A DNA stretch of 32,874 nt from IMG/VR virus record IMGVR_UViG_3300000553_000177. The stretch is one strand, 5' to 3'. This document shows, in pieces, positions 3,300 to 31,805 of this stretch. Below the pieces are notes generated by a model, which ran no database searches, was not told the DNA's origin, and saw only the letters and a list, made by a program, of their open reading frames with translations. The DNA is from a virus. The stretch's first letter is position 1; every line of letters starts with the position of its first letter. A program made the position numbers and the translations under genes.

Positions 3300-3850
3300 T
3301 TACGTAAGTCTTAACTTACATAGTTGGGTCAAAGGGTTATGACCATTTTTACGAACTTCCAAGACTTAATAACTCCCACTGATGTAAGTTTCGTATGAAG
3401 TTGAAGGTGCTTCCAAACCAAGGGTTATGTGTTATCCTCTAAACAGATTTACTTTATTTGAGGTCTGTAAATCATACCTACAGAATATCATCTGCATGAA
3501 ACTCTCCTTTTATGGTAGAAAAAAGAGTAAGAAAACCTTAAGTGTTTCACGTTTCACTCTTAATAACGGATATCTTATTTAAGCTAATCTTCACCAGCCA
3601 ATCCAATATTGGATTCCAATAAAGGATTTATAAGGTTCAGTTATCTGTCTGGTAGATAACGCCCTGCCTATCTCTCGCGGTTAGACATCCTACTTTATTG
3701 ATAAAGTCTTTTAGTTGACTGCCAATTCTTTTTTAGGCGAACTGGATTCAAACCTCAAGTTAAGATTCACGTTTTCTTTCCGTCGAAATATATACGTTAT
3801 TAAGATGAATAATTTAACTTATGATAAATATAGTCCCGATTTTAAAAAAG
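3300..3850. other. ORF-free island of about 550 bp with visibly higher GC than its flanks; candidate structured ncRNA or a decayed gene
   Basis: no ORF of 60 aa or more in any frame; stops in all frames; local palindromes (GACTTACGTAAGTC at 3296-3309); repeated AAGGGTTATG. Confidence 0.25.
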
Positions 3851-4194: not shown

Positions 4195-4752
4195 TTAATA
4201 TTTAATTCTTAATTCTTCTGGTTTTAAACCAAACTTATCAGCAATTTCTTGTATTGATAATTCAGTTATTACTGATTTTTTAGGTTCATTAATATCTACT
4301 GCATATTTCCAGGTTGCAAGCGTAGTTGAATTAGGTATTTCAGAAATATAATAAGTTCTATCATTATAATTAAATTCACCTATTACATTTCTTTCTAAGT
4401 ATGGTATTGTTTCATTGTATGGTATTGTTTCACCTGCTTTTTCATCCGTCCTAGTCCAATCACTAACTAACATTTGTTTAGGATAAATATTATACTTATA
4501 CATATCTTCAACACTTAAAACCAACACTGGTACACTATTGTCTTTAAAATATTTATAATCGTAGCAATTAAACAAACCATTAATGTTGCCATAATAATAA
4601 TTATTATCACCAGCAACCTTGGAATTTAATCCAAATTTTTTACCAACATCAACACCTTTATCTTTAAACCATTGCACAATTTTCTTACCATCTTCAGGAT
4701 AATGTGATTTAACTACTAAATTATTGAGATTTTTATTTTTTTGAATTTCCAT
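4195..4752 (-). CDS. hypothetical protein (185 aa)
   Basis: ORF track; long ORF in AT-rich DNA. Confidence 0.55.
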   Translation of the reverse strand: MEIQKNKNLNNLVVKSHYPEDGKKIVQWFKDKGVDVGKKFGLNSKVAGDNNYYYGNINGLFNCYDYKYFKDNSVPVLVLSVEDMYKYNIYPKQMLVSDWTRTDEKAGETIPYNETIPYLERNVIGEFNYNDRTYYISEIPNSTTLATWKYAVDINEPKKSVITELSIQEIADKFGLKPEELRIKY

Positions 4753-6532: not shown

Positions 6533-6856
6533 TCACAGATTATATTTTTTTGTCATTTTATACAATTCAAGTTCTTCTGGTGTTGGTATAGTTAGTTCTG
6601 ATTCTTCATGTTTTGTATTTGGTGGATCGATATCGAGTATATATACTGGTATTGGTGTTACATTCAATGTAATTATAAATGTTTGTTTAATTATTTCGCC
6701 TATATTATCTGTTTGTATTAATTTAACTATTTGGCCTTCTTTATAATTGAATTTTAATATATTATAAGGATACATTTCACTTTTTGAAGGAATTTTAACA
6801 GTTTTAGGTTTAAAGAAGTCGGTTAAGAAATTTTCATATTGTTTTATATGGTACAT
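6533..6856 (-). CDS. family A small protein (107 aa), MYHIKQYENF...TKKYNL; the last gene of array 2. A hairpin overlaps its stop codon
   Basis: ORF track; motifs; hairpin TCTGTGA-TTAC-TCACAGA at 6523-6540. Confidence 0.6.
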   Translation of the reverse strand: MYHIKQYENFLTDFFKPKTVKIPSKSEMYPYNILKFNYKEGQIVKLIQTDNIGEIIKQTFIITLNVTPIPVYILDIDPPNTKHEESELTIPTPEELELYKMTKKYNL

Positions 6857-15706: not shown

Positions 15707-17077
15707 TTAAAGATTATATTTCTCAGAATCAATAAGATAATCATATTCATCTTCAATTTTAGGATTAAGAATATTGTGAGTACACAAAAATTTAAATTTT
15801 GTTGTCATAGGACTTTTATAATCATCCTTATCAAATCCATAAATATCTTTTTCTATGAACCATTGTTGAAATTCAAATGATTTGAACCATTGTAAAGTAT
15901 TATTATTCAATTCAATAGCAAGTCCAAAAAGGGTATATCTGCTTCTATCATAATCTAATTGAACTGTAAATTCACCTACAAAATCCGATAATTCTTTTTT
16001 CTTTTTGATTAATTCTAAATTATCAATTACAATCAATTTTGGAAAGATTTCATCAGGAGAATTAATATAATTTGTACAAACATTACTTACTATACTATTA
16101 ACTTCTTCAAAGTTACCTAGATTTTTATATTTTAAATCACCATATTCAAATTCATAAGAAAATTCATCAGAATCATAGATATTTTCTAATAAATCTTTGA
16201 AAGTTTTAACTTTCAAATTATGTTTTTTTATATAATCTATAATTTCTTGATAATTAAATGATAATTCTAAATTTTTCTTTGCATCATTACTATTTTCAAC
16301 ACTAAAAGGCAAAAGTTCAATTATTTGTTCGGCTGCTTTTTCAACTGCTCTTTCATTCTCCATTTCTATTTCACTCTTAATGTCTTTCAAATCTTCTTTC
16401 AATCCTAATTTTAAAAATAGTTCATAAATAGAACCTTCTTCTTCTGGATCTATATCAAAATCAAATGTTTCACCCAATATTTTAACTTCACTAAGTGTAT
16501 TGCCAGATAAATATGATTGAATATAATCATATTCATTATCATCCATTTCGTATGTATAATTATTATAATAGGATGAAATTTGCAACAAATAATTAATTAT
16601 ACCTTCTTCTATATTCATCATATTTTCTAAATCTCTAGAATTTATTAGAATAGTAAAATCAGATTCATTAAGAAAGTTACGATCATAATATTTGTATTTA
16701 ATCTCATAATCATCTTTATCCAATCCAATATAGTCTAAAACTTTTTCATAATTATCTTCAGTAATAGTAGATAAAATAACATCTAGATTTTCGGTCTGTT
16801 CTTCGACACTTTCATCAATAGGATTGTTCTTTAGATATTCTGCTTGTTTTAATTTTTTGAAATTCAAATCTTTAAATTTATGATTCTTTTGATTAATAGT
16901 TTTAATAATTTCAGAACGATTTTTCATATTTCGTTCGTCTGGCAATCTTTTTTTTAAAGCTTTAAGACCTTTTTGTAATACTTGTAAACTCTTATCAATA
17001 TTCTTTTTAATCTTAAAAGGCTTATGAGAATTTATTTTTATCGGAGTAAAATTTTCGTATGTTTTTATATATTTCAT
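15707..17077 (-). CDS. large family A member (456 aa), MKYIKTYENF...DSEKYNL
   Basis: ORF track; family termini enclosing a long acidic, repeat-poor body. Confidence 0.6.
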   Translation of the reverse strand: MKYIKTYENFTPIKINSHKPFKIKKNIDKSLQVLQKGLKALKKRLPDERNMKNRSEIIKTINQKNHKFKDLNFKKLKQAEYLKNNPIDESVEEQTENLDVILSTITEDNYEKVLDYIGLDKDDYEIKYKYYDRNFLNESDFTILINSRDLENMMNIEEGIINYLLQISSYYNNYTYEMDDNEYDYIQSYLSGNTLSEVKILGETFDFDIDPEEEGSIYELFLKLGLKEDLKDIKSEIEMENERAVEKAAEQIIELLPFSVENSNDAKKNLELSFNYQEIIDYIKKHNLKVKTFKDLLENIYDSDEFSYEFEYGDLKYKNLGNFEEVNSIVSNVCTNYINSPDEIFPKLIVIDNLELIKKKKELSDFVGEFTVQLDYDRSRYTLFGLAIELNNNTLQWFKSFEFQQWFIEKDIYGFDKDDYKSPMTTKFKFLCTHNILNPKIEDEYDYLIDSEKYNL

Positions 17078-17101
17078 TAAGATTAATCATTTTTACAATT
17101 A

Positions 17102-17530
17102 TCACAGATTATATTTTTCTGCATTCATATATAATTCTAATTCTTCTGATGTTAAATTTGGATATTTTAAATATAAATGATATGCTAAAAGTGCATCTTC
17201 TCTATTGTCTGTACTATATAGAAGGCCTTCGCTCATATATCTTTTCCAAAATGACAAACTCACTATATTACCATAATATTCATCATAATCTTTTTTACCC
17301 GTAAAAAAATCTTTAAAAGAATCCATACCTTTACTTGAATTTATTATTATTCTATATAAGATATACAGCGGGTGTTCTTTCAAAAAGTTAGGATTGAGCA
17401 TTATAACAGCTAATTTATAAGATTTATTTTCAAAATAATTTTTAATTCTCCACAAATAATATTTTTTATCAATATTAACTTTTTTGTATTTTGATTCAAA
17501 CAATAGTTCATATCTTTTTATAAATTTCAT
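17102..17530 (-). CDS. family A protein (142 aa), MKFIKRYELL...AEKYNL
   Basis: ORF track; motifs; ATGA overlap at 17527-17530. Confidence 0.6.
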   Translation of the reverse strand: MKFIKRYELLFESKYKKVNIDKKYYLWRIKNYFENKSYKLAVIMLNPNFLKEHPLYILYRIIINSSKGMDSFKDFFTGKKDYDEYYGNIVSLSFWKRYMSEGLLYSTDNREDALLAYHLYLKYPNLTSEELELYMNAEKYNL

Positions 17531-17772
17531 TCTTTACTTTTTAATTTGTGATGTACATAAGTTTTAATATGTTTATATATTGGTTTTGAATGAGTTAAAT
17601 CTATTCCATAATTATTGAAAATAAAATGAATAATAAATTCGATAACATGATCTTCTGTTATAGTTTTATGTGTTTTTTCAATATGTTTTAATGCTTTACG
17701 GAATGATTTTTTAATAATATTCCAATCAAAATTCATTAAACTTTCATTATATTTAGCATATTTAGTTATCAT
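17527..17772 (-). CDS. small protein (81 aa) starting MITKYAKYNESLMNFDW; a degenerate junction is embedded in-frame (apparent fusion)
   Basis: GCTAAATATAATGAAAGTTTAATGAA resembles the family A junction. Confidence 0.45.
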   Translation of the reverse strand: MITKYAKYNESLMNFDWNIIKKSFRKALKHIEKTHKTITEDHVIEFIIHFIFNNYGIDLTHSKPIYKHIKTYVHHKLKSKE

Positions 17773-18005
17773 AAATTATATTTTTTTACATCTCTTGAAA
17801 AATCTAATCTTTTTTTCAATTTTTTTAATTTTTCAATGATTTTTTCAATATCAATTTTTTCTAATGGAACTTTGCCGAAACCACTTATAGCCATATCTAA
17901 TATTATCATTTGTTCTCTAACTTTAGATGATAGTTTTTGAGTGATTTCATCATGCTCACTTCTATTAGATGGTTTAAATTTTTCATTGAATCTTTCTATT
18001 TTCAT
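17769..18005 (-). CDS. family A small protein (78 aa), MKIERFNEKF...VKKYNL
   Basis: ORF track; motifs. Confidence 0.6.
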   Translation of the reverse strand: MKIERFNEKFKPSNRSEHDEITQKLSSKVREQMIILDMAISGFGKVPLEKIDIEKIIEKLKKLKKRLDFSRDVKKYNL

Positions 18006-18232
18006 AAATTATATTTTTTTGCCTCCAAACGATTTTTTAATTCTTTCAATTTCTCTATTAAATTATCAATCTTATTGGAAGAAAGTTCATTTTCATCAAT
18101 ATTGAAATCTATTATAATATCTACCATATAAATATCCATTAAAATTATATCTGTTCTAATTTCATTTGCTAATTTTTGTAAATCTAAATCAAAATGAATT
18201 TCTGATTCATTAAATTTCCTAATTTTCATCAT
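18002..18232 (-). CDS. family A small protein (76 aa), MMKIRKFNESE...AKKYNL; a paralog of 17769..18005
   Basis: ORF track; shared ...IEKLKELKNRL / IEKLKKLKKRL segment. Confidence 0.6.
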   Translation of the reverse strand: MMKIRKFNESEIHFDLDLQKLANEIRTDIILMDIYMVDIIIDFNIDENELSSNKIDNLIEKLKELKNRLEAKKYNL

Positions 18233-18564
18233 AGATTATATTTTTTTGCATCTACTTCGTACTCTTCTATAAAATATCCAGAATCTAAACCTATAAAATG
18301 ATTATCATCCGTTAAAACTACAAAACATCTACCTGAAAGCATTACACCAGTTTCAAATTCAGCATACAACCTATATAATTTACCTTTAGTTAATTCCTTA
18401 GGTGCATCGTCATTACAATAAACATTTCTTAAAAACTTATCATTTTCAAGATTGAAAGGATTAAATTTTGTTTTAAGCCTAATTTGTTGCATAGATAGTC
18501 CTCTTGGACTTCTTTTAGATGATATTGCCTCATTTAAATTTTCATAATCAATCAAATGTTTCAT
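18229..18564 (-). CDS. family A small protein (111 aa), MKHLIDYENL...AKKYNL; the first gene of array 3
   Basis: ORF track; motifs. Confidence 0.6.
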   Translation of the reverse strand: MKHLIDYENLNEAISSKRSPRGLSMQQIRLKTKFNPFNLENDKFLRNVYCNDDAPKELTKGKLYRLYAEFETGVMLSGRCFVVLTDDNHFIGLDSGYFIEEYEVDAKKYNL

Positions 18565-18652
18565 ATTTTTAACAACTAATTTTTAATTTATCTATATATT
18601 AAAATCTAATATTATTTTTTTAATATATAGAAAAATTTTGTAACTTTGTGAC

Positions 18653-19087
18653 ATGAATAAAAATAAGTATAACCTCTTTATAGACGACGAGCGTTTTCCG
18701 AACAAAGATGTTCCGGCAAGTGATAGTGTTTTTCACCTTACAGGTGATAATAAATATCGAGATTTAAAATGGATAATTGTTAGAAATTTTGGAGATTTCG
18801 TTAAAATTATTGAAGAAAGAGGTTTACCGTTGAGGTGCTCGATGGACCATGATTTAAATGATTTTCATTATTATCATTATCAGACTTATACAGTATATAC
18901 AGGAAAAATTGATTATACAGTTGTTGAAGGTACAGGACTTGAATGTGCTAAATGGCTCATTAACTATTTGATGGATAATGATTTAGATGCACCCGAAATT
19001 TTGATACATACTCAAAATACCGTTGGTGCTGAGAATATAAGAATGTTATTTAACGATTATGAAAAATCAAGAATTATTACATTATAA
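18653..19087 (+). CDS. hypothetical protein (144 aa) whose N-terminus, MNKNKYNLFIDDE, carries a KYNL/junction-like sequence in plus orientation
   Basis: ORF track; AAAAATAAGTATAACCTCTTTATAGAC resembles the junction. Confidence 0.5.
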   Translation: MNKNKYNLFIDDERFPNKDVPASDSVFHLTGDNKYRDLKWIIVRNFGDFVKIIEERGLPLRCSMDHDLNDFHYYHYQTYTVYTGKIDYTVVEGTGLECAKWLINYLMDNDLDAPEILIHTQNTVGAENIRMLFNDYEKSRIITL

Positions 19088-19373
19088 AAATTTTTATATT
19101 GGTGATTATTTTATTATAATCACAACTCCTGGTATATGGAATAGTTCAATGAATAATAATTGTCCACTAAATAGTAATATATCTTATCCTTATAAAGGAA
19201 GAATTAAAAATATATTGGCAAGTCAAGTGTATGGAAAAGTAATAATAGGAATGACAGAAGGTATATATGGATGGTCTTTAAGTTATTTAGTAGGAAAAGG
19301 TTTAATTATTCATGATGTAATAAAACAAAGAAAAGTAAAATTAATGAAAATAAAACAAGATTATGAAAAATAA
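19059..19373 (+). CDS. family B small protein, tail KQRKVKLMKIKQDYEK (the likely start is the internal Met near 19149)
   Basis: ORF track; the 5' end overlaps the previous gene. Confidence 0.45.
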   Translation: MKNQELLHYKNFYIGDYFIIITTPGIWNSSMNNNCPLNSNISYPYKGRIKNILASQVYGKVIIGMTEGIYGWSLSYLVGKGLIIHDVIKQRKVKLMKIKQDYEK

Positions 19374-19437
19374 AGACATGTTAGGTGAAATTGGTGATAA
19401 ATAATTTGTTGGAATATTAATAAAAATCAAAAATAAA

Positions 19438-20061
19438 ATGAAAATTCGTTGTGGATTCGTTAGTAATAGTAGCAGCAGTTCATTTATCATAAATGCTATT
19501 GATGGTTTTTCAACCGTAAAAAATGTTGCTGAATATATTATGGATAATGTTAGTTATAAAAGCTATATAACTGAACGAAAAACTTTAGAAAGTATTGATC
19601 CTGATACACCAGTTCATTTCAACGTTGGTGGTGAAGAAACTTATATACGTAAAGTTGATAATAAAATAGTCATAGTAACAACACAAAATATTACTTTTAA
19701 TTTATTTCATGAAAAATGTCTTGATAAAAAAGACTTAACAGAAGATTTTTATAGACAATTTGATTTTATTGAATCAGATGAAGATTATCCTCTTGAAGAA
19801 GGTGAGGAATATGAAATAATTAAAATGGATGATCCTAGAAACTTTACATATTTCTATGGTAAATTTGATGATTTTAATATATTGAAATATAATATTCTTG
19901 GTAAACATACATACTTACAGAAGGGTTGTCCCAGATGCAAAACATCATTTGCATCTGGTTGGAGACTAAAAGGTGGGAGAAGAATTTGTGATTGTCAAGT
20001 ACAAAAATATAAAGACAGAATAACTAGGAAAGAAAAAATAATGAAAATCAATGAAAAATAG
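19438..20061 (+). CDS. family B protein (207 aa), MKIRCGFVSNSSSSSFI..., tail RKEKIMKINEK; a paralog of the next gene
   Basis: ORF track; N-terminus shared with 20051. Confidence 0.55.
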   Translation: MKIRCGFVSNSSSSSFIINAIDGFSTVKNVAEYIMDNVSYKSYITERKTLESIDPDTPVHFNVGGEETYIRKVDNKIVIVTTQNITFNLFHEKCLDKKDLTEDFYRQFDFIESDEDYPLEEGEEYEIIKMDDPRNFTYFYGKFDDFNILKYNILGKHTYLQKGCPRCKTSFASGWRLKGGRRICDCQVQKYKDRITRKEKIMKINEK

Positions 20062-20650
20062 AATAGGATTTGTAAGTAATTCATCTTCAAGTAGTTTTAT
20101 TGTTTTAAAAGATGCAATAACTGGTAAGCAAAAGGATATGATAGTAAATTTTTCAGAGTGGGCTAAATTTTTTATAGCACTTGATGAAGAAAAGAATTAT
20201 AAAGATGCTAAGGAATATGCAACTGAAATGGAATTATATCAAAGTGATGAATATTCAGAACAAAGTAACACTAGATTAAAATATAAATTTGAATATTATG
20301 ATGATGGATATTGGCATTTTGAAGAAACTGATGATTATATTTTTGGTGCAACCACAATGGACAATTTTGGAATGGACGAATATTTTAATTATATTAAAAT
20401 TGATCCTGATTATGTAAGATGGGATGAAGGTTGGAATGATGATCCATCACAAAAAGATCTTGAATTTATCAAAAATAAAAAACAAAGGTATCGTAAATAT
20501 AAATCGCGGTTGCAATTACTGGTGGTGAAGCTCGGTATGTCCTTAACAAGGAAACTGGTGAGATTACACTATTTGTTGGTCCAAAAATGTTTATTCCAGA
20601 TCCTCGCAAAGAAGTTATTGTTAAGAGGGTACTTGATGAGAAATCAGTAA
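20051..20650 (+). CDS. paralog of 19438 (MKNRIGFVSNSSSSSFIV...). The 3' ~150 nt of this ORF runs out of frame across the MVP fragment, so it is probably chimeric or disrupted
   Basis: ORF track; a second reading frame over 20503-20748 encodes an MVP repeat. Confidence 0.4.
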   Translation: MKNRIGFVSNSSSSSFIVLKDAITGKQKDMIVNFSEWAKFFIALDEEKNYKDAKEYATEMELYQSDEYSEQSNTRLKYKFEYYDDGYWHFEETDDYIFGATTMDNFGMDEYFNYIKIDPDYVRWDEGWNDDPSQKDLEFIKNKKQRYRKYKSRLQLLVVKLGMSLTRKLVRLHYLLVQKCLFQILAKKLLLRGYLMRNQ

Positions 20651-20748
20651 AATTATGGTTTCCTGATAGTATTGATGCAGCACAGCACAATAAACAATTA
20701 GAATCTGAAATGAATCTAAATGGAATGCTAGTGTATGTCCATTATTAA
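20503..20748 (+). pseudogene. isolated fragment of an MVP N-terminal repeat (81 codons, no start)
   Basis: ITGGEARYVLNKETGEITLFVGPKMFIPDPRKEVIVKRV matches the MVP repeat [27 protein letters not shown]; locally elevated GC. Confidence 0.5.
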
Positions 20749-20769
20749 TAAAAACAAGGTTAATTCTTT

Positions 20770-21054
20770 ATGAAAGATAATTATATAGTATGTTGTAAGA
20801 ATGTTGATGAATCGGTAAAGATTCATAAGTTTTTATTTTTGAATGGTATATATTGGAGGGATACAAGGGATGTTATTAGGAGTGGTACTAGATGGTTATG
20901 GTTAAGGATAAGTCAGGGACAAATACAAGCGTGTGGTGAGTCTTACAGATATTTAGATGGTTATTATGAGCATATTAATATATGTGATTACACATTTATA
21001 ACGGTAGATAAGTTAATGAGAAAATTAAAATTGCAGAGATTAAATGAGATATGA
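20770..21054 (+). CDS. family B small protein (94 aa), MKDNYIVCCKNVDES..., tail MRKLKLQRLNEI
   Basis: ORF track. Confidence 0.55.
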   Translation: MKDNYIVCCKNVDESVKIHKFLFLNGIYWRDTRDVIRSGTRWLWLRISQGQIQACGESYRYLDGYYEHINICDYTFITVDKLMRKLKLQRLNEI

Positions 21055-21374
21055 AGATAGATGTGAAGATTGGTGAGTTAGACAAGATGGCATATGATTT
21101 ATATGTTGATGCGACAATGAGAGCGAATAAAATATTATGTAAGAAGAACAAGTTGATATATGTCAAAGTTGATTTAATAACTGTTTTAAAGAAAGGTGAA
21201 TACTATGATATTACTTATCCAGTTGAAAGATTAGTTTGTGTAAGGTATGGTCCAGGTAAGCATGATATAATGTTATTTAATGACGGTTATTATGGTTATG
21301 AATCTATTTGGGAATATTTTTATACGGTAAAGGAATCAAGGAGAATGAAATTAAAAAGATTGTTGTTGATATGA
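21051..21374 (+). CDS. family B small protein (107 aa), tail ESRRMKLKRLLLI
   Basis: ORF track; ATGA overlap. Confidence 0.55.
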   Translation: MKIDVKIGELDKMAYDLYVDATMRANKILCKKNKLIYVKVDLITVLKKGEYYDITYPVERLVCVRYGPGKHDIMLFNDGYYGYESIWEYFYTVKESRRMKLKRLLLI

Positions 21375-21610: not shown

Positions 21611-22030
21611 ATGAACATATTTGAAAAGTTAAATGTTCCTGAGAACACTAATGGATTTATTAATAAGCAAGTGATATGTATAAAGGATAAGAAATTTATA
21701 TATGCACAGGTTAATAGTGAAAAGAAACCTTATAGATTAGTAAGGTGGAGATTTCTTGTTGGTAAAGAAAGTTTTATAAAGGATACTAGGAGATATAGAA
21801 TTGGTTCACTTATGAGGTGTTATGAACATAGTGCTATAAAGAGATTTATTAATAGATGTAGGAGAATATATTCTAATAAACTTGTATCAGATTATCCTTG
21901 GAAATGTGATATAATTGATAATAAAGGTCGGTTTATCATAATGAATTGTGAGAAAGCGTTAAAATATTTTCGAGTTGTTGATTTACAAGATATTAGGCAA
22001 AAGAAATTATTAAACTTGAAATCATTATAG
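21611..22030 (+). CDS. family B protein (139 aa), tail IRQKKLLNLKSL; its 3' end overlaps the 3' end of a convergent family A gene by 6 nt
   Basis: ORF track. Confidence 0.55.
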   Translation: MNIFEKLNVPENTNGFINKQVICIKDKKFIYAQVNSEKKPYRLVRWRFLVGKESFIKDTRRYRIGSLMRCYEHSAIKRFINRCRRIYSNKLVSDYPWKCDIIDNKGRFIIMNCEKALKYFRVVDLQDIRQKKLLNLKSL

Positions 22031-22330
22031 ATTATATTTTGTTGCATTGAGTTCTAATTCATATTCTTCTATTTCATCTTCATGTAGTTTTCTTTCTATT
22101 TGGTCATGTCTACACCATAGAGTTAGACCTTTACTAAATTGAACTGCGTAAGGTACATTACTATAATCATTATAAATTATTTTAGCACTTCTAGAATCTT
22201 CGAAAGATTTTAAAAATTCTCTCTTTATTAACACATAATCATCTACTTTATAATTAATAATATCTAGAAATTCTGGGTTCTCGTCATACCACCCTGCGGG
22301 AGATTCGTACATTTTTAAGTGTTTCATCAT
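22025..22330 (-). CDS. family A small protein (101 aa), MMKHLKMYESP...ATKYNL
   Basis: ORF track. Confidence 0.6.
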   Translation of the reverse strand: MMKHLKMYESPAGWYDENPEFLDIINYKVDDYVLIKREFLKSFEDSRSAKIIYNDYSNVPYAVQFSKGLTLWCRHDQIERKLHEDEIEEYELELNATKYNL

Positions 22331-24320: not shown

Positions 24321-24728
24321 TTATAGATTATATTTTAGAGTATCTCTCCATAGTTCAAAGTCATTTAGTTTATTTATAAAGTTAAAGGTTTCTGTGTATT
24401 TAAAATAAAAATCTTCACCATTATGGATTGGTAAAATCGTTTTCATAAATGTTACAAGGTCTTTCATTTGGTCACTATATGTTTTTGCATCATCGTTCAT
24501 TACGAATGATTTGAAATTTCTATTATCTGTTATTAATGTGCTTAATTTGTATTTTGAATTTGTAAAAACAATGGCGGCATATTCGTCACTTGTTTCTTTT
24601 TTTATTTCAAATTCAAATTCATTTGTAATTTCAATTATTTTTTCATATAGTTGTATTAGTAATGGATTTGTTTCATCATATGATAATTTTTCATAAACTT
24701 TTTGATAAATCGTTTTAATATATTTCAT
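24321..24728 (-). CDS. family A protein (135 aa), MKYIKTIYQK...TLKYNL; the first gene of array 4
   Basis: ORF track. Confidence 0.6.
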   Translation of the reverse strand: MKYIKTIYQKVYEKLSYDETNPLLIQLYEKIIEITNEFEFEIKKETSDEYAAIVFTNSKYKLSTLITDNRNFKSFVMNDDAKTYSDQMKDLVTFMKTILPIHNGEDFYFKYTETFNFINKLNDFELWRDTLKYNL

Positions 24729-25280: not shown

Positions 25281-25465
25281 AGAAGGAAAAGTTAATATGT
25301 GAGTATAGTGATAAGTGTACTGTTGGTGTTAAGTGTGTACATTATCTTGTACATGATAAGACAACAGGTTGTGGTCACTTTGGTTGTGATCAGGTGGATA
25401 ATGCAGTTTGTGTGAGTATTAAAGAGATAAGGAAGAGAAAGTTAGAGAAGTTAAATTCATTATAA
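25277..25465 (+). CDS. Cys-rich family B small protein (62 aa), tail IRKRKLEKLNSL
   Basis: ORF track; ATGA overlap. Confidence 0.5.
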   Translation: MKKEKLICEYSDKCTVGVKCVHYLVHDKTTGCGHFGCDQVDNAVCVSIKEIRKRKLEKLNSL

Positions 25466-25783
25466 ATTGTATTTATTAGCGTCAAGTCTCATTTCAACAT
25501 ATTGTACGGCTTCTTGTATATAATTAGTTTGAAAAACAATATTAATGACATTGGAGGGACAGCGAAAAGAAGTGTCATAATCAATTTTTTTTAGTTTGGT
25601 GTTTTTGTCAGGATAAAAGTCACAGTATAGTTTGGGCCAGGTTGAGTATCTTTTGATTATAATAAAATCATTATCTTCTGGTATAAATTTTAATATTTCA
25701 TATATATCAAAATGAGTTTCTACTTCTTCTTCTACTATAAATTTTTCATAATTAGAATTTTCGAATGTTTTTAAGTATTTCAT
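25460..25783 (-). CDS. isolated family A small protein (107 aa), MKYLKTFENS...ANKYNL
   Basis: ORF track. Confidence 0.6.
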   Translation of the reverse strand: MKYLKTFENSNYEKFIVEEEVETHFDIYEILKFIPEDNDFIIIKRYSTWPKLYCDFYPDKNTKLKKIDYDTSFRCPSNVINIVFQTNYIQEAVQYVEMRLDANKYNL

Positions 25784-25836: not shown

Positions 25837-26154
25837 ATGAAAATGTTTAAAATAGAAGAAGGTTTGGTATTATACTGTAAGAAGGACACTCATATTTTTA
25901 ATAAAGAAAAGATAAATAAAGGATCGGAGTGTAAAATTGTTGCAGTTCAAAGATCTACTATATTTTTTGATAACACTTGCCAAATAGATTATGATAAAAA
26001 GGGACTTGCTATAAGTATTAAGAAAAATGGATCTGATTTTTCTTTATTATTTATGAGCTTTAGGAGCTATGACTACGAGTATATTTGGGATCATTTTATA
26101 CTAGAGGAATTATATTTAAGGAAGCAAAAACTAAAAAGGCTGAGTAGTTTATGA
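25837..26154 (+). CDS. family B small protein (105 aa), tail LRKQKLKRLSSL
   Basis: ORF track. Confidence 0.55.
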   Translation: MKMFKIEEGLVLYCKKDTHIFNKEKINKGSECKIVAVQRSTIFFDNTCQIDYDKKGLAISIKKNGSDFSLLFMSFRSYDYEYIWDHFILEELYLRKQKLKRLSSL

Positions 26155-26176: not shown

Positions 26177-26776
26177 ATGAGAAAAATTAGTTTTTTTATT
26201 CGTAGTAATAATATTGAGGATTATAAAGAGTTTATAATCTTAGCTGATCGGTATGGGTTTAATACTAGTAATTTAGAAAATTTAAGAATAGATGATCAGG
26301 GAAAACTTTTTGTAAAAAAGTTTGGTGTTCGTTTCCAACCGATTGGAATTGGAATCATCAGTGATATACCTGATCATGTTGTGGACACAAAATTTGATCT
26401 ATGTTCAAGGGTTTTTTTGGCTTATGAAAATTATGACATTGCAAGGGAAGTATTAAAATCATCTGATATGGAAAAATATATTAGGATTTATAAACATAGA
26501 CTTAGAAAATTCAAACATCATATTCAAGGATTATTAAAAGATAAATTAAAGAAGTATCCATATTTTGAGATTGGTGAGGAGGTTTATAGTGACATGGATG
26601 TTAAATATCGTTGGATAAAAGAGTTGGGTTATACTTATTTTGTAATATTGGGTTATACTTATTTTAGTAGTGGTTGGGAAATAAGAACACAGAAAGGTTA
26701 TTCTTTTTTTGAGACTTTGAATCCTAGGTATAAGAAGAAAATTCGTAAGTATAAGTTGAAGAAAATTGGTTTATAG
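26177..26776 (+). CDS. family B protein (199 aa), tail IRKYKLKKIGL
   Basis: ORF track. Confidence 0.55.
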   Translation: MRKISFFIRSNNIEDYKEFIILADRYGFNTSNLENLRIDDQGKLFVKKFGVRFQPIGIGIISDIPDHVVDTKFDLCSRVFLAYENYDIAREVLKSSDMEKYIRIYKHRLRKFKHHIQGLLKDKLKKYPYFEIGEEVYSDMDVKYRWIKELGYTYFVILGYTYFSSGWEIRTQKGYSFFETLNPRYKKKIRKYKLKKIGL

Positions 26777-31248: not shown

Positions 31249-31530
31249 ATGAGTGCAGGATATAAATATAAGATAGGTGATGTTGTTTATATCAAAGATT
31301 TAAATTGGTTCAAAAAACATCAGGGATGGGAATTTGGTGTAATGTTTATCAGCAAATCTATGTTTGAACATTGCGGTAAAAAGGCAATTATCACTAATGA
31401 ATTTGGTGGTTATAAATATGTGGTAGATATAGATAATCGCCATATTTATGCTGAGAAAATGTTTGAAACATTACGAGATGTTAGAAAAAATAAATTAAAT
31501 AAATGGACTTCAGTAAGATACAACACATAA
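31249..31530 (+). CDS. family B small protein (93 aa), subfamily GDVVYIKDL.WF, tail VRKNKLNKWTSVRYNT
   Basis: ORF track. Confidence 0.5.
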   Translation: MSAGYKYKIGDVVYIKDLNWFKKHQGWEFGVMFISKSMFEHCGKKAIITNEFGGYKYVVDIDNRHIYAEKMFETLRDVRKNKLNKWTSVRYNT

Positions 31531-31805
31531 GTTTTACAACTGCTAAAGAGGCAGTTATAGTTGCTAAATTTCTTCAAAGCCTTGACTATAAGATTAAAAA
31601 AGAATATTTGAAAGAATCCTTCTATGAATGTAATTTACCTTTTGGTAATTTTGAAATTGCTCTTCTCTACTACTATTATGGATTCACTAAGCTTGGAAAC
31701 GGGGAATGGCGTTGTTCTAATGATGGTGGTGTTATATTTACATATTCAACAAAGGCTAAACATTTAATTAGAAGAGAAAAATTGAAAAGGTTAAACAGTT
31801 TGTAA
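31503..31805 (+). CDS. family B small protein (100 aa), tail IRREKLKRLNSL
   Basis: ORF track. Confidence 0.5.
   Translation: MDFSKIQHISFTTAKEAVIVAKFLQSLDYKIKKEYLKESFYECNLPFGNFEIALLYYYYGFTKLGNGEWRCSNDGGVIFTYSTKAKHLIRREKLKRLNSL

Follow-up and report, generated by a model that had tools for sequence, protein, structure and literature searches.

Among the closest known counterparts of the genes considered here is the vault shell of rat, human and rabbit (PDB 4V60, 4HL8, 9BW5, 9Z4W), whose eukaryotic MVP has its whole architecture in common with their full-length phage relatives: beta-rich repeats arrayed in the N-terminal part, then an SPFH-like shoulder domain and a long cap helix. Homologues of MVP have also been reported in two human-gut Caudoviricetes, ctOa11 and ct2Ri15, tailed-phage metagenomic genomes whose genes are related to bacterial MVP-like proteins (bioRxiv 10.1101/2023.11.10.566534). 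Vault proteins go unmentioned in the text of Al-Shayeb et al. 2020 (PMC7162821). We found unannotated MVP-like ORFs in the GenBank 'uncultured phage' genomes LR756500, LR756501 and LR756503 (462-735 kb), with 47-51% identity to the pieces described below, and relatives in IMG/VR, on contigs of up to 501 kb, with 34-85% identity to them.

Here we analyse a stretch of 32,874 nucleotides of viral DNA (IMG/VR record IMGVR_UViG_3300000553_000177; hereafter the window), in which an isolated MVP repeat fragment had been noticed from the letters alone. The window carries no hallmark gene and no tRNA gene; from its relatives and its few PHROG matches, it most likely belongs to a large or huge phage. 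We consider it very probable that the patch is a young relic of an MVP-like gene of such a phage, left by one inversion and one deletion in whichever order. We see in it the usual kind of gene breakage rather than an element of a new kind, and the history of the locus is thereby reduced to two events in a gene that related large phages still have intact.

The open frame at 20503-20748 (+) consists of 81 sense codons without a start, followed by TAA (translation IAVAITGGEARYVLNKETGEITLFVGPKMFIPDPRKEVIVKRVLDEKSVKLWFPDSIDAAQHNKQLESEMNLNGMLVYVHY, then stop), just as the original prediction had described it, and a frame of such size would be expected here by chance with a probability of about 1e-3 given the local composition. 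Its MVP-derived portion is 20506-20730 (+) only (225 bases, 75 codons), which corresponds to residues 319-393 of full-length phage MVP-like proteins and has no start codon; the first codon and the final five (VYVHY) are non-MVP sequence. In tblastn searches, residues 319-393 of homologue P0096 aligned to 20506-20730 (+) with 84% identity (E=1.3e-36), in agreement with the proposed identity of the frame as an MVP repeat, and the same interval was matched by P0004, P0002, P0031, P0012 and P0060 (E 1e-17 to 1e-36). The 75 residues are 80-85% identical to the full-length MVP-like proteins of close relatives (803-819 aa), and 78-85% identical to loci L009-L019. The locally GC-richer patch that had been noted is also real: its 36.4% GC compares with 26.2% and 28.4% on its two sides and with 26.7% for the window as a whole, and is close to the 35.8% of the half-MVP gene. 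Judged by these alignments, 20506-20730 is a genuine piece of an MVP repeat region.

The 81-aa frame alone returned zero Pfam families at E<=10, and its best phmmer match among PDB MVP chains reached only E ~0.5. These two tests are uninformative because the phage MVP repeats are too divergent. A profile search had been named as the test that could refute the MVP reading; on the fragment alone it would have failed to show an MVP repeat, and it is the tblastn alignment with close full-length homologues (E ~1e-36) that decides the question. As the Pfam Vault repeat models do not match the fragment, its family membership is reached via transitive homology and fold.

A search with the 428-aa ORF described below recovered 96 homologues, several of them longer than the query and containing the fragment region. 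A profile built from 13 full-length sequences matched vault MVP chains at E 5e-36; in this alignment the beginning of the fragment falls near MVP residues 378-409, with a weak domain-level E of 0.37. On the basis of the rat vault structure, we take these residues to be the repeat before the last one. The human R3 peptide with which the fragment had originally been compared is only a paralogous repeat, the equivalent in the profile search being this next-to-last one. The AlphaFold model of relative P0031 (mean pLDDT 73.4) aligned in Foldseek with vault structures over ~760 columns (E 8e-33) and with the murine R1-R7 crystal structure (E 2e-14, TM 0.59). In this model, the region equivalent to the fragment is predicted as six short strands (a beta-rich repeat) and two short helices, then a disordered linker; further on, the shoulder is followed by a helix at 621-731. 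Pfam gave no Vault match in the N-terminal half of a full-length relative and recognised the last repeat only (Vault_3, L011 residues 445-502). On profile and predicted structure taken together, the gene family is MVP-like over its whole length. Its phage members are 70-90% identical where neighbouring genes share ~40%; these little-studied genes are well conserved yet can be lost or truncated.

The second piece is a C-terminal MVP-like gene of 428 aa at 13074-14360 (-), made of nine leader codons and then MVP residues 393 to the end, that is, the linker, the last repeat, the shoulder and the cap helix. It matches the Pfam families MVP_shoulder (PF11978, E 7.9e-28) and Vault_3 (E 7.9e-8), and is 72-77% identical to intact relatives. 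It lies 6.1 kb from the fragment on the opposite strand, as had been stated (about 6 kb). The tblastn search with full-length MVP proteins that had been suggested located two colinear pieces: P0096 residues 393-429 fall at 14333-14223 (-), P0004, P0002, P0031, P0012 and P0060 map in the same fashion, and MVP residues 1-318 were undetectable in the window at E<=10. When joined, the two pieces give a gap-free colinear alignment to full-length proteins (…ESEMNLNGML followed by GELGGRSNAYVTD…), the fragment and the C-terminal half meeting to the nucleotide at Leu393/Gly394. On this fit they are two pieces of one ancestral gene. The claim that the ancestral MVP gene was broken up and scattered holds to this extent; 'scattered' says too much for two pieces, a single two-break inversion and the absence of codons 1-318.

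The new leader of the C-terminal half, MLTLGYMQR (14334-14360), contains two ATGs and is drawn from the juxtaposed spacer. A strong terminator-like hairpin (12-bp stem, then a T run) lies just downstream of the gene at 13022-13050 (-). Promoter-like sites near the new start are not enriched (58, against 64 expected from shuffled sequence). With its new ATG and retained hairpin, the intact 428-codon C-terminal half may still be expressed and working.

The relatives provide the ancestral arrangement. The fragment region is followed directly by the C-terminal half on one strand in 17/17 IMG/VR relatives, and 12 checked IMG/VR loci carry a single intact ORF of 803-912 aa. In L001 (an 85.9-kb ENA contig), L011, L012 and L019, the order is a 456-like gene (-), B1/B2-like genes of family B (+), a 128-aa gene (+) and MVP (+), with homologues of window 11914-12453, 10583-11377 and 9444-9947 on the 3' side of MVP. 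The window keeps the internal order 456 (-) … B1 (+), B2 (+), fragment (+); the C-terminal half is flipped relative to this block, and the downstream genes (179-aa, 264-aa, 167-aa) are colinear with it. One two-break inversion of 14334-20730 (6.4 kb) restores colinearity with the relatives, and because these keep the parts contiguous and ordered, the orientation in the window is the derived one. The inverted segment, delimited by order and orientation against L001, L011, L012 and L019, holds the 134-, 70- and 91-aa genes, a response-regulator receiver gene, the 456-aa gene, five small KYNL-tailed genes, a cREC_REC gene, a 104-aa gene, B1, B2 and the MVP fragment. The receiver gene is a stand-alone one (PF00072, E 7e-9; 15311-15667, -), and the cREC_REC gene lies at 18653-19087 (+) (PF20274, E 6.6e-17; phrog_1479).

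The original prediction had further proposed that the arrays of cassettes had been built into an older locus or across it. This is not borne out by the relatives, where the same family-B genes, in the same order, already stand directly upstream of the intact MVP (L001, L011, L012, L019). Insertion of family-A or family-B cassettes into MVP was likewise considered and rejected: family-B genes flank intact MVP in relatives, and the array is a pre-existing neighbour.

Both inversion junctions lie on CTAG. The left one (14330-14333) reads on the coding strand …CAA CGC CTAG GTG AAC…, and the right one (20728-20731) reads …GGA ATG CTAG TGT ATG…. The window contains fewer copies of this palindrome than would be expected (37, against 78.5). 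No inverted repeats pairing the two breakpoints were found beyond chance AT-rich matches, the ends sharing only the 4-nt CTAG. The inversion would have broken the MVP gene after codon 393 and, at its other end, the short intergenic stretch that separates the 134-aa gene from the 94-aa gene, the reconstructed ancestral junctions being …AATGGAATGCTAGGTGAACTCGG… and …TATGCAACGCCTAGTGTATGTCC…. This second breakpoint is reconstructed rather than observed, since IMG/VR yielded no relatives of these two genes, and the 'empty' distal site expected of the ancestor (…CAACGC CTAG TGTATG…) was absent from all relatives looked at. The presence of CTAG at both breaks suggests joining through microhomology, and a crossover within it would be the simplest mechanism.

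The deletion junction (20503-20505) was read at the base level, in DNA and protein, against L001, L011, L012, L009 and L013. It joins the 3' end of B2 (…CGT AAA TAT AAA T) to MVP codon 319 (GCG GTT GCA…). With respect to L001, ~1.5 kb is missing: B2 has lost its stop and the codons just before it, and the 128-aa gene is gone together with MVP codons 1-318. The deletion would accordingly have begun near the end of B2, within the RKxKL motif of its tail, and have extended as far as MVP codon 318. The cut lies within the C-terminal R-K-x-K-L-x-K-[LI] motif of B2, after RKYK; a B2 paralogue at 26177-26776 ends in RKYKLKKIGL before its stop. Comparison of the fragment boundaries with family junction motifs, another suggested check, therefore places the left boundary on the family-B motif. 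B2 (20051-20650, +; 199 aa) is homologous to the B2 of relatives over residues 1-153 and, having lost its own stop codon to the deletion, ends in 46 codons read out of frame from the MVP fragment; the original prediction had correctly seen this ORF reading through the patch in another frame. B1 (19438-20061, +) and B2 are tandem paralogues that start MK(I/N)R(C/I)GFVSNSSSSSFI(I/V). B1 matches phrog_7397 (unknown function, E 2.5e-6), both are without a Pfam match, and their homologues adjoin the MVP gene in L001, L011 and L012.

From an ancestral order of the 456-aa gene (-), B1 (+), B2 (+), the 128-aa gene (+) and MVP (+, ~800 codons), the inversion and the deletion would represent two illegitimate-recombination events. 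Their outcome would be a start-less remnant of codons 319-393, the loss of codons 1-318, and codons 393 to the end persisting as a 428-codon ORF 6.1 kb away on the other strand, which would have gained an in-frame ATG and nine codons from newly adjacent sequence. As to the recombinational turbulence that had been claimed for the region, the two lesions do show illegitimate recombination, and we do not extend the claim beyond them.

Several other explanations were weighed against this history. A similarity arising by chance, with the frame at 20503-20748 unrelated to any MVP gene, would fit the lack of Pfam matches at E<=10 for the fragment alone and the E of ~0.5 to PDB MVP chains. We nevertheless give it practically no credence: at least six full-length MVP-like proteins are 80-85% identical to the 75 residues (E down to 1e-36), the abutment with the half-MVP is exact, and the GC content is like that of the MVP gene and unlike that of the flanks. 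An assembly chimera masking a real genome with an intact contiguous MVP is highly improbable for different reasons. Contig L003 (JGI 3300020724) is 99.89% identical to the window, with three indels elsewhere, and contains all three junctions. The left inversion junction is also present in L004 (ENA ERZ27271927) and L005 (Logan), from other samples, so that it is identical in four assemblies, and the right inversion and deletion junctions are found in both the window and L003 despite the three indels by which these differ. A chimera also fails to explain the clean 4-nt overlap and the loss of 318 codons. What speaks for it is that L004, an independent assembly of the same strain, ends (at the equivalent of window 20467) 36-38 bp before the deletion junction, which could be a branch in the assembly graph; this end may also reflect population heterogeneity at the deletion junction. 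The indels themselves are an 18-bp tandem duplication (TTGTATGGTATTGTTTCA) at 4415-4432 in the window, absent from L003, and differences of 2 bp at 3678 and 3 bp at 4605.

The segment might instead be a programmed, reversible invertible element, a phase-variation switch turning MVP on and off, given that the inversion disrupts the coding sequence precisely and that the palindromic core CTAG lies at both ends. We regard this as scarcely plausible. The two ends share 4 bp only, long inverted repeats are absent at the boundaries, and even with the segment turned round again the gene would lack codons 1-318 and a start. Pfam and PHROGs revealed neither a recombinase nor an invertase among the scanned larger genes of the segment and the gene beyond its right end: the larger ORFs of 13074-21374, all but three small ones of the segment (81, 78 and 75 aa), matched only Response_reg, cREC_REC and families of unknown function. 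The inverted state is carried by four assemblies, and no contig with the restored junction (…GGAATGCTAGGTGAACTCGG…) was found in the collections scanned, which are also without this lineage. Exact-match scans gave 0 hits in IMG/VR for the right inversion and deletion junctions and 0 in JGI metagenome contigs for the inverted or restored junction; because both collections lack the lineage of the window, these scans are uninformative on heterogeneity. We find it very unlikely, if somewhat less so than a switch, that the fragment is a partial duplicate, or a recombination patch from a co-infecting relative, rather than the part that the local gene now lacks. Phage genomes are often mosaic, the window covers only part of the genome, and the fragment is 81-84% identical to relatives, against 71-77% for the C-terminal half. 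However, intact relatives are also more identical to each other in this region (84-89%, against 71-79%), the fragment ends at the exact codon where the C-terminal half begins, with only CTAG common to both, and it adjoins B2 in the ancestral order and orientation of relatives. The breakage of one local gene by an inversion and a deletion hence remains the preferred reading.

With no start codon and out of frame with B2, the fragment is regarded as non-functional. It contains no stop or frameshift, and its dN/dS against intact relatives (0.06-0.14) resembles that among intact genes (0.03-0.18), so that none of the signs of neutral decay (stops, frameshifts, raised dN/dS) is seen, at saturated dS. 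The nearest relatives are saturated at synonymous sites (dS ~1), and for this reason the two events cannot be dated or ordered. These sequence comparisons fit a recent event, the break being young relative to the divergence from any available relative. As the window is part of a genome, an intact second MVP copy or the N-terminal 318 codons could lie elsewhere in it.

The closest relative of the C-terminal half, L026 (JGI 3300028623 contig Ga0257141_1021817, 95-1164; 93% amino-acid and 85% nucleotide identity), is itself truncated. Its order is a B2-like gene, a 132-aa gene and then the remainder of MVP, entered via an ATGA overlap (MMGEFGGRSNAY…), with Met392 directly after the stop of the 132-aa gene, indicating an independent clean deletion of MVP codons 1-391. 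The boundary lies 1-3 codons from the inversion break of the window, a closeness that purely random breakage does not predict. The left ends of the two deletions, in B2 of the window and in the 132-aa gene of L026, both fall in the last codons of genes with an R-K-x-K-L-x-K-[LI] tail, and the region of this motif may be prone to recombination. Such coincidences, to which the endpoint of P0002 (below) can be added, might stem from local fragility or from truncations at domain boundaries being selected, and with n=2 they are a lead only. That the C-terminal module (linker, last repeat, shoulder and cap helix) works as a free-standing 'short MVP', and that the breaks are non-random, seems to us rather doubtful, although two lineages made this module independently, the window through its inversion at Leu393/Gly394 and L026 through its deletion.

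Other candidate lesions were seen among the homologues. P0002 (511 aa; ENA ERZ1426824, a 3,655-bp contig) starts with MISVILIVLLST, resembling the first 12 residues of the 128-aa gene of L001 (MISIILILLLFI), and continues as MVP from about residue 308, near the deletion endpoint of the window at 319. It is a third independent N-terminal truncation, in this case with a hydrophobic leader joined on in frame, and a GIY-YIG endonuclease gene follows closely on its downstream side. In L007 (1900-1920; also L008), a conserved Trp of an MVP-like gene that is otherwise full-length, and 92% identical to that of L009, is replaced by an in-frame TGA (FPLWPGQ to FPL-stop-PGQ), which splits the call into 121 + 594 aa and is either a nonsense mutation or the mark of a phage reading TGA as Trp. 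In L001 (9960-10005; also L002), an A-run that follows …EMSRK contains a 1-nt shift, which splits the MVP-like gene into 437 + 368 aa; the sequence is identical in two assemblies, and represents a real lesion or a homopolymer error. L026 has a frameshift near residue 208, possibly an assembly error. The frameshifts and stops of L001, L007, L026 and L027 could be due to sequencing error or recoding as well as to true lesions, and many database homologues of 400-600 aa on long contigs (L001, L007, L027) were not counted as independent truncations, since frameshifts, assembly errors or recoded stops are possible there. The 'short' MVPs P0001 and P0003, which start M-[LF]-G-E-[IL]-G-G, were rejected as instances of the same break: they are contig-edge truncations whose few upstream bases still encode MVP.

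Two kinds of C-terminal tail recur among the ORFs of the window. Of the 75 ORFs that start with ATG and reach 60 aa or more, 21 end exactly in K-[YF]-N-[LM]-stop, mostly KYNL, all 21 on the minus strand (for example 197-562, 6533-6856, 15707-17077, 17102-17530, 22025-22330, 24321-24728 and 25460-25783). Its codons vary synonymously (Leu TTA/CTA/CTG/CTT/TTG, Tyr TAT/TAC, Asn AAT/AAC), so that conservation is at the peptide level, and the stop often overlaps the ATG of the next gene. This set is probably what the original prediction had called family A. The second tail, [LI]-R-K-x-K-L-x-K-[LI], lies three to nine residues before the stop in 22 of the 75 ORFs, also with synonymous codon variation. 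Examples on the plus strand are 14391-14795, 14785-14997, 19438-20061, 20770-21054, 21051-21374, 25837-26154, 26177-26776 and 31503-31805, and on the minus strand 11914-12453. It occurs in relatives too (in L001, …YRKEKLDNI-stop in B2 and …LRKEKLEKLEKI-stop in the 128-aa gene), an unexplained C-terminal peptide tag common to otherwise unrelated small proteins.

Set against eukaryotic MVP, the genes considered here are phage-borne and their full-length members only 16-20% identical, with N-terminal repeats too divergent for the Pfam Vault repeat models and any assembly of their products into vault-like particles hypothetical; the gene of the window is in addition split and without codons 1-318. 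The genes of ctOa11 and ct2Ri15 are described as intact, and the lineage of the window is set beside them by description only; unlike these human-gut phages, it was recovered from environmental metagenomes, and the contigs with which it groups are much larger. The IMG/VR MVP-like genes that were checked are intact as well, whereas the copy in the window is inverted and truncated, its stand-alone C-terminal half offering a natural truncation for testing the shoulder and cap-helix part alone. The fragment is otherwise like ordinary remnants of microhomology-mediated inversion and deletion, being truncated at both ends, start-less, internal to a gene that is intact in relatives, and marked by a short (4-nt) junction homology. 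It differs from ordinary gene remnants in its lack of visible decay, and in that the other half of the gene persists as an intact ORF with an acquired start.
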